Positions 56,138-63,439 of a stretch of 64,000 bases of DNA are shown in pieces (the stretch's first letter is position 1; each line of letters begins with the position of its first letter). The stretch comes from Escherichia coli (GTDB lineage Bacteria; Pseudomonadota; Gammaproteobacteria; Enterobacterales; Enterobacteriaceae). A model generated the notes under the pieces. That model was not told the origin of the DNA. It saw nothing but the letters and a program-made list of their open reading frames with translations, and made no database searches. The position numbers were made by a program, and so were the translations under genes. The DNA lies in NCBI RefSeq assembly GCF_003991155.1, contig NZ_CP031293.1. One strand, 5' to 3'.

Positions 56138-58603
<2,466 letters not shown>

Positions 58604-58610
58604 GTTCGCT

Positions 58611-58648
58611 AAAAAACAGAACGGGGCCAAAAGGTCCCGTTTTTTTTC
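58611..58648 (+). terminator. Rho-independent terminator after glgP
   Basis: aacggggcc-aaaa-ggtcccgtt stem followed by tttttttt. Confidence 0.6.
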
Positions 58649-58719
58649 GCCTTTATTTAGGAAAAGTGTCCAGAGGGGGCGAGGGTTATCGGGGAGTATA
58701 ATTTCGCCATTCAGCAAGA

Positions 58720-60237
58720 ATGGAAAGAATAATGCAAAACGGAAAATGGATTTTGACCTCGCTGGTAATGACTTTTTTTGGCATCCCCATACTGGCGCAA
58801 TTTTTGGCAGCGGTTGTTGCCATGCTGGGGGCCGGGCTTGCCGCTATTCTTGAGGTTTGCAATTTACTCTTTACGCCAACAATTTATCTTCTACTCAACG
58901 TCTTTATGCTGACGCTGGGGGCGATAATCATATTTTTCTCTGGTCGCGTGTGGACTGGTGATAGCGCACCAGAAAAAAGAGAAATAGCCGCCTGGCGACA
59001 ATGCTTTTTTCTCTTACCCGCGCTATTAACCCTGATTGGCTGGATAATCGCGCTACATCTGGCAGATTATCAACTTCGCCAGATGGGAGCCGGTTGGTTG
59101 GCAAACCTTATGCTTCCCTGGTTGGGCGTTTTTACAGTCTCATTCGTCGGTGGTGAGTACTGGTGGATAGTCATTATTCCCGTTGGCGCGCATATCAGTT
59201 TTTCACTGGGATACGGCTGGCCGACCAGACACCCTTTAACCGGCACCTCCGGTCTACGTTGCCGTAATTTACTTCTGTTCATTCTTCTCTTACTGGGTAT
59301 TGTCGCTGGTTATCAGGCTTATTTATATAAACAGCTTAATCCCGGCGTCGGTGTGCGTGAAAATATTGATACCTGGGCCTGGCGACCCGATAAACTTAAT
59401 AATCAACTGACGCCACTGCGTGGTAAACCACAAATTCAATTTACGCAAAACTGGCCGCGACTCGATGGCGCTACGGCGGCGTACCCCATTTATGCCTCTG
59501 CATTTTATGCATTAAGTGTAATACCAGAGGATTTTCACGTTTGGGATTATCTGGATAACTCTCGTACGCCAGAAGCATATAACAAAATCGTTAACGGTGA
59601 TGCCGATATTATTTTCGTGGCGCAACCTTCCGATGGGCAAAAAAAACGCGCTGAGAAATCGGGCGTCACTTTGCTGTACACGCCATTTGCCCGTGAAGCG
59701 TTTGTTTTCATCGTCAATGCGGATAATCCGGTTAATTCCCTGACTGAACAACAAGTGCGTGACATTTTTAGTGGCGAAATTACCAACTGGCGCACGGTTG
59801 GCGGTAAGGATCAGGAGATCCAGACCTGGCAACGCCCGGAAGACTCTGGCAGCCAGACAGTGATGCAATCACAGGTCATGAAAAATGTCCGCATGATCTC
59901 GCCGCAGGAAACCGAAGTGGCAAGCATGATGGAGGGAATGATTAAAGTCGTTGCCGAATACCGTAATACAAACAACGCAATAGGCTACACCTTCCGCTAT
60001 TACGCAACACAAATGAATGCCGATAAAAATATAAAACTGCTAGCGATTAACGGTATTGCACCGACTGCGGAAAATATTCGTAACGGCAAATATCCGTATA
60101 TCATCGATGCCTTTATGGTAACGCGGGAAAATACTACGTCAGAAACACAAAAACTGGTCGAATGGTTTTTAACGCCGCAGGGACAGAGTCTGGTGGAAGA
60201 TGTGGGCTATGTGCCGCTGTATCCAACAATGAAATAA
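58720..60237 (+). CDS. Membrane-anchored PstS-like (PBP type 2) binding-domain protein: N-terminal polytopic domain fused to periplasmic binding domain
   Basis: ORF track 505 aa; about 200 aa hydrophobic N-terminus then PstS-like motifs GATAAYPIYASAF, VAQPSDGQKKRAE, INGIAPTAENIRNGKYPY. The region corresponds to the yzgL pseudogene position of K-12 as I recall it. Confidence 0.7.
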   Translation: MERIMQNGKWILTSLVMTFFGIPILAQFLAAVVAMLGAGLAAILEVCNLLFTPTIYLLLNVFMLTLGAIIIFFSGRVWTGDSAPEKREIAAWRQCFFLLPALLTLIGWIIALHLADYQLRQMGAGWLANLMLPWLGVFTVSFVGGEYWWIVIIPVGAHISFSLGYGWPTRHPLTGTSGLRCRNLLLFILLLLGIVAGYQAYLYKQLNPGVGVRENIDTWAWRPDKLNNQLTPLRGKPQIQFTQNWPRLDGATAAYPIYASAFYALSVIPEDFHVWDYLDNSRTPEAYNKIVNGDADIIFVAQPSDGQKKRAEKSGVTLLYTPFAREAFVFIVNADNPVNSLTEQQVRDIFSGEITNWRTVGGKDQEIQTWQRPEDSGSQTVMQSQVMKNVRMISPQETEVASMMEGMIKVVAEYRNTNNAIGYTFRYYATQMNADKNIKLLAINGIAPTAENIRNGKYPYIIDAFMVTRENTTSETQKLVEWFLTPQGQSLVEDVGYVPLYPTMK

Positions 60238-60262
60238 CGCTCGAGAGAAAGGAATCAGCGCA

Positions 60263-61255
60263 ATGAATAAATTCACCGGTGTTTTACTATTAGGTACGGC
60301 GCTACTGGCGGGATGTGTCGACCGGGAAGGGTACTATAACAGCGTCAGGGAAGAAGACAGCCATGGACTGACGTCTCTGCGGGGGCAACCTGAATTACGT
60401 TACAACGATGATTGGTCAAGATGGCCGAGAGTGTACGGCGCTACAGCCTTATACCCGCTGTATGCCTCCGCGTATTATGAATTAGTACCCGAGCCAAAAG
60501 ATAAGGATCGAACCTCGCTGGCCTGGCAGGCGTATGGTTTGCAACAAACCCGAACAGCTGAAGCCTACGATAGTCTGATTAAGGGTACCGCGACGGTTAT
60601 TTTTGTTGCACAACCGTCGGAAGGACAGAAAAAACGTGCAGAAGAAGCAGGTGTTAAACTCAAATATACCGCTTTCGCCCGCGAAGCCTTTGTCTTTATC
60701 GTTGATATCAAAAACCCGGTTAATTCACTTAGCGAACAGCAGGTCAAAGACATTTTTAGCGGTAAAGTGAGTCGCTGGAATAAAGTGGGCGGCGGTGACG
60801 AAAGTATAAAAGTCTGGCAGCGGCCAGAAGATTCTGGAAGCCAAACGGTTATGAAGGGACTGGTTATGCAAGATACTCCAATGCTGCCAGCCAAAAAATC
60901 CACTGTTATCGATCTTATGGGCGGTTTAATTACCGAAGTCGCCGACTACCAAAATACACCATCTTCTATTGGATACACCTTCTACTATTACGTCACACGT
61001 ATGAATGACAATATGCTCAAAATGCGCAAACAGATCAAACTGCTGGCTATAAATGGCGTTGCACCTACAGAGGAAAATATCCGTAACGGCACTTATCCGT
61101 ACATAATTCATGCTTATATGGTGACGCACGAAAACCCTACGCTGGAAACACAGAAATTCGTCGACTGGTTTTTAAGCCCGCAGGGACAGCAATTGGTAGA
61201 GGATGTGGGCTATGTGCCGATTTATGACGCATCATCCGAATCATCAGGACAATAA
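60263..61255 (+). CDS. PstS-like (PBP type 2) lipoprotein, paralog of the upstream binding domain
   Basis: ORF track 330 aa; lipobox LLAGC; same PstS-like motifs (GATALYPLYASAY, VAQPSEGQKKRAE, INGVAPTEENIRNGTYPY). Confidence 0.7.
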   Translation: MNKFTGVLLLGTALLAGCVDREGYYNSVREEDSHGLTSLRGQPELRYNDDWSRWPRVYGATALYPLYASAYYELVPEPKDKDRTSLAWQAYGLQQTRTAEAYDSLIKGTATVIFVAQPSEGQKKRAEEAGVKLKYTAFAREAFVFIVDIKNPVNSLSEQQVKDIFSGKVSRWNKVGGGDESIKVWQRPEDSGSQTVMKGLVMQDTPMLPAKKSTVIDLMGGLITEVADYQNTPSSIGYTFYYYVTRMNDNMLKMRKQIKLLAINGVAPTEENIRNGTYPYIIHAYMVTHENPTLETQKFVDWFLSPQGQQLVEDVGYVPIYDASSESSGQ

Positions 61256-61257
61256 AG

Positions 61258-61863
61258 ATGAATAAAATCAGACTTTATATTCCTCCGTTAATTCTTGGTT
61301 TTGTTATTGTGCCGTTGTTGGTGTGGCCGACGGTGGTTGCGCTGGCTGCTTGTGTTATCACGCTGAGTTTTATGGGAGAAATACTGTTCTCTATCCCGCT
61401 CATGTTCAGGAGTATTTCACTTCTGGAATTCCAACTTGGGTTATTGGCTGAATATGCACTTTTTTTCTGTGCCATGTGTTGCGTTGGTTGGCAATTTTCT
61501 TGCAGAACTCAATCTGAACTGAAAAGCAGACTCCATTGTTGGTTGGTATTTGCACCAGTTTATTTCTGGTTGCTCCTGTGGAATATCATTTTCTATGTCG
61601 CGCCAGCGCAAATTGCTTTGCTGGAAAATATGCGCAATTTCTTTCTGACCATTGTCTGGTTACCCCTGAATTTTTTTCAATTTGGGTCTCAGCCGTGGAC
61701 TGACTTTATCGGTCCGATAAGCGCCCAGCTTGGTTTTGCATTGGGATATTATTGCCAGTGGCGTAGCAAAAATAGAAGTCAGAGGAAGAAGTGGGGCGAG
61801 TGGGTAACGTGCTTAAGTTTGGCGATTTTAGCTCAGGGGCCGTTATTCAATTATTTACAATGA
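61258..61863 (+). CDS. Polytopic membrane protein resembling the N-terminal membrane domain of the 58720..60237 product
   Basis: ORF track 201 aa; hydrophobic; shares a short motif (GFALGYY vs SFSLGYGW) and size with the N-terminal domain of the first gene. Start 3 nt after the upstream stop. Confidence 0.6.
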   Translation: MNKIRLYIPPLILGFVIVPLLVWPTVVALAACVITLSFMGEILFSIPLMFRSISLLEFQLGLLAEYALFFCAMCCVGWQFSCRTQSELKSRLHCWLVFAPVYFWLLLWNIIFYVAPAQIALLENMRNFFLTIVWLPLNFFQFGSQPWTDFIGPISAQLGFALGYYCQWRSKNRSQRKKWGEWVTCLSLAILAQGPLFNYLQ

Positions 61864-61883: not shown

Positions 61884-61908
61884 GCCCGGTTGCACTTCAC
61901 AACCGGGC
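61884..61908. terminator. Bidirectional hairpin between membrane-protein gene and glpD
   Basis: gcccggttg ... caaccgggc inverted repeat read from sequence. Confidence 0.45.
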
Positions 61909-61915
61909 ATCATCC

Positions 61916-63421
61916 TTACGACGCCAGCGATAACCTCTGCTGCGTATACTCCACCAGCCACTGACTCACACGAGATTGTTGATCCGCATTCAGCCACATG
62001 CCTTGTTTTGTGCGACGCCACAGGGCATCGTCGGCGCGACGGACCCATTCGTGATCCACCAGGTATTTCAGTTCCGCTTCGTAGAACTCATGACCGAAAT
62101 CTTCCCCGAGGTCGCTTATCGCTCCCGCGTTGCCGAGCAGCAGTTCGCTGTTGCTGCCGTAAGTGCGCGCGTAGTGACGTGCCAGCGATTCGGTCAGGAA
62201 CGGGTAACGGCGGCGCAGGCGGGCGGCGTAATCGTCACGGTCGCCTTCAATGGCACCACCCGGCAGCACGCTCTCTTTCGTCCACGTCGGACCAATGCCC
62301 TGATAATATGGCGTCAGTTTTTCCAGCGCATGTTCTGCCAGTTTTCGGTAGGTGGTCAGCTTACCGCCGAATACCGACAGCAGCGGTGCTTTGCCGTTTT
62401 CATCATGGATATCAAGGGTGTAATCACGGGTAATAGCCTGCGGCGAGTCGGACTCATCATCACACAGCGGACGCACACCGGAATAGGTCCAGACGATATC
62501 GTCACGGCTAAGCTGTTTTTTAAAGTGCGCGTTATACACTTTCAGCAGGTAATTGATTTCACTCTCTTCAATCTTCACCGCTTTCGGATCGCCTTTGTAT
62601 TCCACATCGGTGGTGCCGATGATGGAAAACTCGTCCATCCACGGGATCACGAACACAATACGTTTATCTTCGTTTTGCAGAATGTAGGCTTGCTTCTGGG
62701 TATGCACGCGTGGCACCACAATATGGCTGCCTTTGATCAGGCGAATGCCATAAGGCGAAGGCAGATGCATCCCCTCGTCGAAGAACTGTTTCACCCACGG
62801 GCCGGTGGCGTTCACCAGGCCGCGCGCCTGCCAGGTGCATTTTTTGCCGGTATCGATATCTTCTGCTTCCACAATCCACAGGCCGTTTTCGCGGCGAGCA
62901 GAAGTGGCACGAGTACGAGTAAGCACTTCACCGCCTTTACGTACCACCATCTGGGCGTTGGCGAGTACCAGACGGGCGTCGTCTACCCAACAGTCAGAAT
63001 ATTCGAATCCGCGCTTAATTTCCGGTTTTAACACTGAGTTTGCGCCAAAACGCAAACCGGTTGATCCCGGCAGGCTGGTGCGTTTACCCAGATGATCGTA
63101 CATAAACAGACCAATGCGAATCATCCACGCCGGGCGCAGATGCGGACGATGTGGCAGGCGAAAACGCATCGGGAAGGCGATATGCGGAGCCATTTTCAGC
63201 AACACTTCACGTTCAGCCAGCGCCTCGCTGACCAGGCGGAATTCATAGTGCTCAAGGTAGCGCAGGCCACCGTGAATGAGTTTTGAACTGGCGGAAGAGG
63301 TCGCGCAAGCGAGATCCTGCGCCTCCAGCATCAGCACGGATAAACCGCGTCCAGCGGCGTCTGCCGCGATACCAGCACCATTGATGCCGCCACCTATCAC
63401 AATCAGATCTTTGGTTTCCAT
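61916..63421 (-). CDS. glpD: Aerobic glycerol-3-phosphate dehydrogenase GlpD
   Basis: ORF track 61916..63436; start moved to METKDLIVIGGGINGAGIA giving 501 aa; FAD-binding GxGxxG. Confidence 0.95.
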   Translation of the reverse strand: METKDLIVIGGGINGAGIAADAAGRGLSVLMLEAQDLACATSSASSKLIHGGLRYLEHYEFRLVSEALAEREVLLKMAPHIAFPMRFRLPHRPHLRPAWMIRIGLFMYDHLGKRTSLPGSTGLRFGANSVLKPEIKRGFEYSDCWVDDARLVLANAQMVVRKGGEVLTRTRATSARRENGLWIVEAEDIDTGKKCTWQARGLVNATGPWVKQFFDEGMHLPSPYGIRLIKGSHIVVPRVHTQKQAYILQNEDKRIVFVIPWMDEFSIIGTTDVEYKGDPKAVKIEESEINYLLKVYNAHFKKQLSRDDIVWTYSGVRPLCDDESDSPQAITRDYTLDIHDENGKAPLLSVFGGKLTTYRKLAEHALEKLTPYYQGIGPTWTKESVLPGGAIEGDRDDYAARLRRRYPFLTESLARHYARTYGSNSELLLGNAGAISDLGEDFGHEFYEAELKYLVDHEWVRRADDALWRRTKQGMWLNADQQSRVSQWLVEYTQQRLSLAS

Positions 63422-63439
63422 GCTGCCCTCATTCACTTT

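Follow-up and report, generated by a model that had tools for sequence, protein, structure and literature searches.

Textbook accounts place PstS-type proteins at the head of high-affinity phosphate import and of phosphate signalling by PhoR/PhoB. The residues with which PstS contacts its ligand are known from established structural work, and one of them, Asp56, accepts the phosphate proton and disfavours sulfate, as seen in structures from the Quiocho laboratory. A divergent member of this very well-known kind of protein sits in an unusual setting within a 64,000-nucleotide stretch of the Escherichia coli contig NZ_CP031293.1 (hereafter the window). Reading of the sequence finds the gap between glgP and glpD filled by three intact open reading frames (ORFs) in the same orientation and with tight spacing, exactly where an earlier note on this DNA had placed them. 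Gene 1 fuses a polytopic membrane domain to a PstS-like periplasmic binding domain, gene 2 encodes a lipoprotein paralogous to that binding domain, and gene 3 encodes a separate distant paralogue of the membrane domain (Table 1). The comparisons below show that gene 1 alone is an ancient, solitary and conserved unit and a long-standing resident of this gap in Enterobacteriaceae, and that genes 2 and 3 are lineage-specific partial duplicates of it. As to function, the reading that we favour, tentatively and with somewhat less than even confidence, is that of a transporter-independent, membrane-tethered receptor for a phosphoryl-type ligand.

The kinship of the gene 1 binding domain with PstS is seen in both sequence and structure searches. 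Pfam PBP_like_2 matches residues 249-485 (2e-31), and TIGR02136, the model of small PstS proteins, scores 129.5 bits, under its curated NCBIfam cut-off of 206.6 bits (that of TIGR00975 is 205 bits). In Foldseek, gene 1 matches small PstS structures with an E-value (E) of ~1e-15 and a target-normalised TM-score of ~0.8, and the top matches are all PstS. A profile of the family matches Clostridium perfringens PstS (4Q8R/4GD5) at 3e-28 and E. coli PstS with an hhalign probability of 85.6% (E 5.6e-6, ~22% identity). Mapped by hhalign in the mature PstS numbering of the published structures, T10 falls on gene 1 T248, F11 (a backbone contact) on A249, S38 on T279, D56 on A297, R135 on R368, D137 on E370, S139 on S372, G140 on G373 and T141 on S374. 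Seven of the eight phosphate-contact positions (T10, F11, S38, D56, R135, S139, G140 and T141) are kept in kind, D56 being the exception. Within the family, R368, S372 and S374 are invariant, and T279 and G373 nearly so; the T248 column is mostly Thr, with Glu, Val, Ile or Ser in some Firmicutes and Betaproteobacteria. The D56-equivalent column holds A, G, L or F in 37 of 37 family members and is never polar, and three residues past it stands an invariant, family-specific Ser, S300 (A-Q-P-S). The comparison with PstS proposed in the earlier note therefore finds the anion pocket largely conserved and the Asp56 equivalent missing. Because this position is always non-polar, the ligand may be something other than plain inorganic phosphate; so consistent a loss suggests a compound related to phosphate but distinct from it, in which the oxyanion is fully ionised or the phosphoryl group substituted.

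The N-terminal ~205 residues of gene 1 form six long helices in AlphaFold2 models, with predicted local distance difference test (pLDDT) values of 80-95. The helices span residues 2-42, 49-75, 80-110, 120-126 plus 128-140 (with a break at 127), 145-165 and 173-202, in agreement with the earlier description of gene 1 as a membrane domain joined to a PstS-like domain. Mean pLDDT is 86.9 for the whole protein modelled with a 37-sequence family alignment and 88.2 for the membrane domain alone, whose predicted template-modelling score (pTM) is 0.83. No Pfam family matches this domain in gene 1 or in 31 family members, and a Foldseek search of AFDB50 with its model returned own-family matches only (Escherichia, Shigella, Salmonella, Leminorella, Budvicia) and then noise. 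Another fold search gave generic helical bundles only, and a similarity of fold to known proteins was dismissed. Word-indexed homologue searches, whether started from the membrane domain, its alignment or gene 3, found Escherichia sequences and fragments only, and no other architectures.

The topology of this domain is read from loop charge counts only. Across the family, Lys and Arg number 1.7 per sequence at the N terminus, 3.1 in the loop after helix 2 and 3.5 in the loop after helix 5, and the remaining loops are neutral or acidic. By the positive-inside rule these charges place the N terminus inside, and an odd number of crossings is needed for the binding domain to be outside; in the model, the broken helix 120-140 is probably not a plain membrane crossing. 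A 31-sequence alignment of the membrane domain has no invariant column, and only P19, W104, P129 and Q195, together with L226 of the linker, are nearly invariant. The N-terminal motif K-[KY]-[WY]-x-L-T-S-L-x-x-F-x-x-x-P is nonetheless recognisable across phyla, from E. coli to termite-gut Clostridiales. Relatives of 347-403 aa with just one to three helices occur in Polaromonas, Oscillospiraceae, Defluviitaleaceae and Kiritimatiellae, and these short forms of other phyla keep the linker motif and the binding domain.

One may argue that the membrane domain is itself a transporter, forming as a homo-oligomer or together with gene 3 a pore or carrier that is fed by the binding domain and needs no ATPase. 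A well-predicted domain that resembles nothing known, is homologous across phyla and has a separate paralogue retained beside gene 1 would suit such a role, and the broken helix 120-140 and the loop charges would be compatible with a re-entrant element. Nevertheless, the helices contain almost no conserved polar residues beyond the few near-invariant positions named above, and the one-to-three-helix relatives keep binding domain and linker. The near absence of invariant columns and the existence of these short forms count, at the sequence level, against a catalytic or pore role, and we regard a transporter of this kind as improbable. The same low probability is given to a broader proposal, in which the membrane domain is a new fold that serves, alone or with gene 3, as an ATPase-independent conduit or signalling partner gated by the PstS-like domain. 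If true, it would represent an unrecognised class of binding-protein-dependent membrane system for phosphoryl compounds in gut bacteria of several phyla.

To place gene 1 in a wider context, one genome per species was searched for two peptide signatures specific to the family, F[RY]YY[AV]T[QR]M and [YLM]T[PA][FI]A[RQ]EAF, which yielded 53 loci. The enterobacterial part comprises Escherichia, Pseudocitrobacter, Superficieibacter, Phytobacter, Intestinirhabdus, Klebsiella spallanzanii, Limnobaculum and Rahnella; further taxa are termite-gut Betaproteobacteria, Clostridia, Oscillospiraceae, Lacticaseibacillus, Phascolarctobacterium, Coriobacteriia and Kiritimatiellae. Their source is largely the gut, that is, Enterobacteriaceae and assemblies from termite, ruminant and human gut samples. 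The family protein is usually 470-570 aa long and consists of the binding domain and an N-terminal membrane region of comparable length. Except in Limnobaculum and Rahnella, the Enterobacteriaceae genera carry gene 1 in or adjoining the glgP-glpD gap, and in Phytobacter and some E. coli it is the sole gene of the gap. Clustering of ORFs across the 53 loci found no conserved neighbour of gene 1 relatives. A conserved ATP-binding cassette (ABC) partner was rejected, as the lone multi-phylum neighbour cluster is a mix of unrelated ABC ATPase types and the other common neighbours are housekeeping genes. ABC permease or ATPase genes near the three-gene locus were found neither in the window nor at the other E. 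coli loci examined, and linkage to pstCAB was found neither in the window nor in other E. coli nor at the 53 related loci; the pstSCAB-phoU genes of E. coli lie elsewhere in the genome. The absence of transporter partners, which the earlier note had pointed out, thus holds at the locus and across 53 related loci of several phyla. In addition, a crude consensus test for the Pho box (CTGTCATAWAWCTGTCAY, at most 3 mismatches) gave no match anywhere in the window, and of the sequences preceding 17 enterobacterial gene 1 orthologues, all but one had top two-repeat matches no better than those of shuffled sequence.

These observations bear on the main rival to a receptor, namely that the binding domains are accessory proteins feeding phosphate or organophosphate to PstCAB or another distant ABC importer, with the membrane domain as an anchor and gene 3 as a leftover. 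The fold and the closest solved relatives, all of them phosphate ABC binding proteins, fit this well, as do the seven retained contact positions; the one-to-three-helix forms suggest that anchoring is what counts, and the Phascolarctobacterium gene adjoins, in divergent orientation, a PotA/PhnT-like importer operon. However, no permease or ATPase is linked at the other ~50 loci, there is no Pho box, and the domain belongs to a TIGR02136-like branch rather than to that of PstS (TIGR00975), so that at ~22% identity docking onto PstCA would be doubtful. Genes 2 and 3 add further difficulties, given below, and we consider the accessory role unlikely.

The start of gene 2, MNKFTGVLLLGTALLAGC, reads by eye as a signal peptide with the lipobox L-A-G-C18, which fits the pattern [LVI][ASTVI][GAS]C. 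The protein matches PBP_like_2 (1.6e-29), scores 125.1 bits with TIGR02136 (again below the cut-off) and 19.1 bits with TIGR00975, and shares 59% identity with the binding domain of gene 1 (E 3e-118), which bears out its earlier description as a lipoprotein paralogue. According to the +2 rule, Asp after the lipobox Cys retains a lipoprotein in the inner membrane. The residue after Cys18 is Val, so gene 2 lacks the Asp(+2) retention signal and by this rule probably has its anchor in the outer membrane, apart from any permease, which speaks against an accessory binding protein. In the family alignment the gene 2 signal peptide falls on the final membrane helix of gene 1. Moreover, whichever enterobacterial genus is compared, its gene 1 binding domain stands at much the same distance from gene 2 (55-59%), which means that the duplication is old or that the copy was imported. 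A gene 1 orthologue of Superficieibacter electus (locus L022, 6022-7062; 346 aa, start MLAGNVILLILVLSGC), seemingly truncated at its N terminus, has a lipobox-like LSGC in the last membrane helix, which may mean that the helix became a lipoprotein signal here independently of E. coli gene 2.

The relationship of gene 3 to the membrane domain is distant. Pairwise BLASTP between them gives nothing (E 1.4), and hhalign with shallow, Escherichia-only alignments gives a probability of 1%. An exhaustive phmmer search, with the membrane domain as query against 1.84 billion cluster representatives, recovered a handful of relatives at 29-42% identity, and the diverse alignment made from them matches the gene 3 family in hhalign with a probability of 96.8% (E 2.2e-10) over 172 columns. 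Both share the motif P-[VI]-[GCS]-[AS]-Q-x-x-F-[TA]-L-G-Y. Gene 3 carries the motif GPISAQLGFALGYY and terminates where the linker and binding domain would start. A chain of BLAST matches leads from gene 3 to a separate membrane protein of the Superficieibacter locus (E 1e-25) and from there to the membrane domains of full-length proteins, and gene 3 also matches a Phytobacter-like full-length protein directly (E 1e-5). The resemblance of gene 3 to the N-terminal domain of gene 1, noticed earlier, is therefore one of homology. In Foldseek, the membrane-domain model matches an uncharacterised 174-aa protein of Escherichia albertii (30% identity, target-normalised TM-score 0.79), which is presumably a relative of gene 3. 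Pfam and NCBIfam contain no family for gene 3 or the membrane domain, and a weak match of gene 3 to a "septation inhibitor" was dismissed (19.9 bits against a cut-off of 120).

How the partial copies arose can be glimpsed in other Enterobacteriaceae. Intestinirhabdus alba carries two tandem full-length copies (L021, 208-1779 and 1772-3382), and in K. spallanzanii (L023, 5911-7512, 7528-8487 and 8544-9050) the second copy is split into ORFs of 319 and 168 aa, with upstream neighbours other than glg genes. Another enterobacterium has a separate membrane-domain gene in the same glgP-glpD gap. The I. alba and K. spallanzanii arrangements look like intermediate stages of the E. coli duplication and splitting, and the simplest history would be a tandem duplication followed by loss of complementary halves, leaving genes 2 and 3. 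The idea of a duplicated, domain-shuffled module put forward in the earlier note is thus supported as regards duplication and splitting. It does not hold as regards a single invented module, because gene 1 alone is ancient, gene 2 occurs in only 16% of complete E. coli genomes and its slot is taken by unrelated proteins in many other strains.

This last point emerged from a survey of 5426 complete E. coli genomes, counting matches with a coverage of at least 80%. Gene 1 is present in 3346 genomes (62%), gene 2 in 884 (16%) and gene 3 in 3876 (71%), and 881 have all three together. About a quarter of the genomes have a stub of gene 1 only and ~15% are without a match. K-12-type genomes retain just the first ~220 nt, and K-12 itself has at this position the 222-nt yzgL pseudogene, the remnant that the earlier note had mentioned. 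In place of gene 2, strain EC958 of sequence type 131 (ST131) has an unrelated 255-aa protein (L002, 3239-4006), and strain PT109 a YbbD-like 236-aa protein followed by that 255-aa protein (L003, 3152-3862 and 3865-4632). Neither cassette protein has a signal peptide or a family in Pfam or NCBIfam, although one gives a weak match to the PRK09781/YbbD model. They end in ...YDASSES[SP]G[QKH], the same C-terminal tail as gene 2, and since this common tail encodes the ribosome-binding site of gene 3, the boundary of the swap lies just upstream of it. Relatives of both recur at this locus in Pseudocitrobacter, Superficieibacter and K. spallanzanii. The E. coli gene 3 allele tracks the middle cassette and not the membrane-domain allele of gene 1, a further point against a conduit formed by gene 3 and the membrane domain.

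Ratios of non-synonymous to synonymous divergence (dN/dS), calculated by the Nei-Gojobori method from E. coli and close Escherichia alleles, are 0.17-0.36 for the gene 1 membrane domain, 0.06-0.33 for its binding domain, about 0.11 for gene 2 and 0.19-0.30 for gene 3, against 0.01-0.06 for the glgP and glpD flanks. All three genes are clearly under purifying selection, weaker than that on the housekeeping flanks. With the pocket mostly kept and selection acting on every gene, the locus does not resemble one with no pocket and interrupted without phenotype, which the earlier note had named as the picture that would contradict it. Selection on gene 3 and its presence in 71% of genomes also sit poorly with a mere leftover beside accessory binding proteins. 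Synonymous divergence (dS) among E. coli strains is 0.3-0.8 in the locus versus 0.05-0.15 in the flanks. Between O157 strain Sakai and the cryptic-clade Escherichia sp. E1V33, dS is 0.0045 for gene 2 and 0.02 for the membrane domain, as opposed to 0.49 for glgP. The high dS of the locus together with the near-identity of Sakai and E1V33 points to a recombination hot spot with old allele lineages and exchange between clades.

Such turnover raises the question of whether genes 2 and 3 and the YbbD-like and 255-aa cassettes are cargo that serves conflict, such as the entry of phages or contact-dependent toxins, or immunity, and has no part in phosphate biology. Alleles two to six times more diverged at synonymous sites than the flanking genes, the exchange between E. 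coli O157 and a cryptic Escherichia clade and the swapping of the middle slot for unrelated signal-less proteins, one with a weak YbbD-model match, are what would be expected of such cargo. So is a gene in the same gap of Superficieibacter sp. (L015, 8183-10987), which encodes a 935-aa protein resembling superfamily 1 (SF1) helicases that matches the anti-phage models ProA and Hhe at scores under their cut-offs; the glgP-glpD gap apparently also collects defence-type cargo. However, PADLOC found no match for any protein of the locus, average dN/dS is well below 1, and gene 1 is vertically conserved here across genera and solitary across phyla, unlike strain-specific cargo. We therefore hold a conflict role to be quite improbable.

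A further alternative, that genes 2 and 3 are decaying, functionless fragments of extra gene 1 copies, is very improbable. It would account for the many database entries for the locus that are truncated or apparently frameshifted, for its loss in K-12 and for the split second copy of K. spallanzanii. However, genes 2 and 3 are both intact ORFs whose low dN/dS is maintained across a synonymous divergence of 0.3-0.8; moreover, gene 2 has gained a lipobox, and gene 3, found in 3876 of the 5426 genomes, has retained a coupled ribosome-binding site.

The locus corresponds to O-island 133 of the enterohaemorrhagic E. coli (EHEC) strain EDL933 and to genes ECs_4270 to ECs_4272 of strain Sakai. In an O-island deletion screen in TUV93-0, deletion of O-island 133 reduced type III secretion, with no follow-up (PMC3378721), and the result is repeated in a review (PMC10877973). 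We found no literature on the protein family itself, only two array tables and this screen. The Sakai lipoprotein paralogue ECs_4271 (L062, 17412-18404) is misnamed "ABC transporter ATP-binding protein", and such annotations, like "PstS family ABC transporter substrate-binding protein", are misleading.

Under the receptor that we favour, the binding domains would face the periplasm, that of gene 1 tethered to the inner membrane and that of gene 2 lipid-anchored. They would close round a tetrahedral phosphoryl-type oxyanion through the conserved Thr, Thr, Arg and Ser-Gly-Ser, the ligand perhaps being an oxyanion in its fully ionised state or a phosphate with a substituent (ester or diphosphate), and not plain inorganic phosphate. 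Binding may then be signalled to other membrane proteins by way of the linker and the membrane domain, or the protein may simply hold the ligand at the membrane; in either case the gene 1 protein would not be the front end of an ABC importer of its own. This reading is preferred because no permease or ATPase travels with the gene in any lineage and no Pho box accompanies it, and because E. coli is without a permease of the matching PstS subtype and gene 2 is probably in the outer membrane. A role beyond that of a tether is indicated in most lineages because the linker and the membrane domain are conserved. Several points weigh against it. To our knowledge, all PstS relatives characterised so far work for an ABC importer, and it is common for an orphan binding-protein gene to rely on a transporter encoded elsewhere. 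Gene 1 has no cytoplasmic output domain of the kind found in histidine kinases, chemoreceptors or cyclases: its interhelical loops are 4-18 residues long and the chain terminates with the binding domain, so that signalling could proceed only via purely hypothetical contacts with membrane proteins. The one-to-three-helix relatives and the near absence of invariant columns mean that the membrane domain may be little more than an anchor. In addition, the E. coli genomes with only a stub or no match show that the locus is dispensable, and the type III secretion phenotype is one gel lane from a screen of whole-island deletions.

The remaining features of the locus are collected in Table 1. G+C content is 0.42-0.49 within the locus versus 0.51-0.57 in the flanks, and the wider neighbourhood consists of glgX/C/A/P and glpD/E/G/R. 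The RefSeq annotation of strain 2016C-3878, which is 100% identical, has the same three coding sequences, with gene 3 as a hypothetical protein. For gene 1 it uses a start at 58729, an ATA codon and evidently an annotation oddity given the ATG codons at 58720 and 58732. The hairpin directly past the glgP stop, read by eye and not listed by a simple hairpin scan, is probably the glgP terminator, in which case the locus would be a separate transcription unit. The only Rfam match is sub-threshold, a ylbH leader at 58610-58714 of the window on the plus strand (22.9 bits against a gathering score of 50, E 0.068), which overlaps this hairpin and is most likely due to chance. A promoter scan of the region upstream of gene 1 found promoter-like sites no more numerous than in shuffled sequence. 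The gene 3 ATG stands two bases past the gene 2 stop codon (61253-61255), and this placement, with the AGGA inside the end of gene 2, suggests translational coupling of the two genes. Downstream, the hairpin between gene 3 and glpD may act in both directions. In several other enterobacteria, two small secreted proteins of unknown family also lie in the gap (L007, 6810-7367 and 7437-7868; also L013, L019 and L022), one of them with Ser/Gly/Asn-rich repeats (SSGxxTYRDxNGN).

Table 1. Features of the glgP-glpD gap and its borders, in window positions
Feature	Position	Strand	Description
glgP	56156-58603	+	upstream flank
Hairpin and T8 run	58620..58648	+	aacggggcc-aaaa-ggtcccgtt then tttttttt
TATAAT hexamer	58697..58702	+	perfect; candidate -10, ~20-35 nt 5' of the possible gene 1 starts, without a good -35
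Gene 1	58720-60237	+	505 aa from ATG at 58720; membrane domain and PstS-like binding domain
Gene 1 membrane domain	58732..59346	+	residues 1-205 from ATG 58732; family motif IPVGAHISFSLGY
Juxtamembrane linker	59347..59448	+	motif E-N-I-D-x3-W-x-P-x4-N-x-L; family form [VI][ND]xxxYxPFxxxNxL (alignment)
Gene 1 binding domain	59449..60237	+	PstS-like, type-2 periplasmic; Pfam, TIGR02136, Foldseek, hhalign
Gene 2 Shine-Dalgarno	60250..60254	+	AAGGA, 8 nt 5' of ATG
Gene 2	60263-61255	+	330 aa; lipoprotein paralogue of gene 1 binding domain
Gene 3 Shine-Dalgarno	61246..61249	+	AGGA, within final codons of gene 2
Gene 3	61258-61863	+	201 aa; separate distant paralogue of membrane domain
G+C-rich hairpin	61884..61908	-	between the convergent gene 3 and glpD ends; terminator-like on the glpD strand
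glpD	61916-63436	-	downstream flank, convergent

If the family senses or holds a phosphoryl ligand, it would provide a new input into envelope or phosphate signalling, and the secretion phenotype of EHEC O-island 133 offers an immediate testable handle and a link to virulence. Among described systems, the small PstS proteins of the TIGR02136 branch (C. perfringens PBP-1, 4Q8R/4GD5; Synechocystis Sll0540, 9L8J; Vibrio cholerae, 1TWY) come closest, with the same type-2 fold, the C-lobe loop R-x3-S-G-S/T and the N-lobe Thr residues all conserved. They differ in that genes 1 and 2 score below the cut-off of their model, that the gene 1 family has S-x-T-P-x-A-Y and A-Q-P-S in place of the N-lobe motifs G-S-G and S-[SD]-R, and that the gene 1 domain is fused via a conserved linker to a polytopic membrane domain and is at none of the loci linked to pstCAB. 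E. coli PstS of the PstSCAB-PhoU system (1IXH/2ABH) is a more distant homologue, with most contacts shared, whereas the gene 1 family is without Asp56, a Pho box or a permease operon and is embedded in the membrane rather than free in the periplasm. ABC importers of the GlnPQ and OpuA types also combine a solute-binding domain and a polytopic membrane domain in one chain. In gene 1, by contrast, the membrane domain comes first, matches no ABC permease or other Pfam family and is accompanied by no ATPase gene.

The tripartite ATP-independent periplasmic (TRAP) transporters DctPQM and the tripartite tricarboxylate transporters (TTT) TctABC likewise pair a binding protein with membrane components without an ATPase, and their small subunits DctQ and TctB are poorly conserved helical proteins similar in size to the membrane domain. 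However, the locus has no large carrier subunit, neither sequence nor fold comparison relates the membrane domain to DctQ/M or TctA/B, and the gene 1 binding domain is of the PstS lineage, not that of DctP or TctC. In summary, the binding domain, though divergent, belongs to a very familiar kind of protein. What is new is its fusion to a membrane domain without a Pfam family, a solved relative or an AlphaFold-database relative beyond its own family, together with the consistent loss of Asp56, a life without a transporter and, in E. coli, paralogues split from the two halves of the protein.

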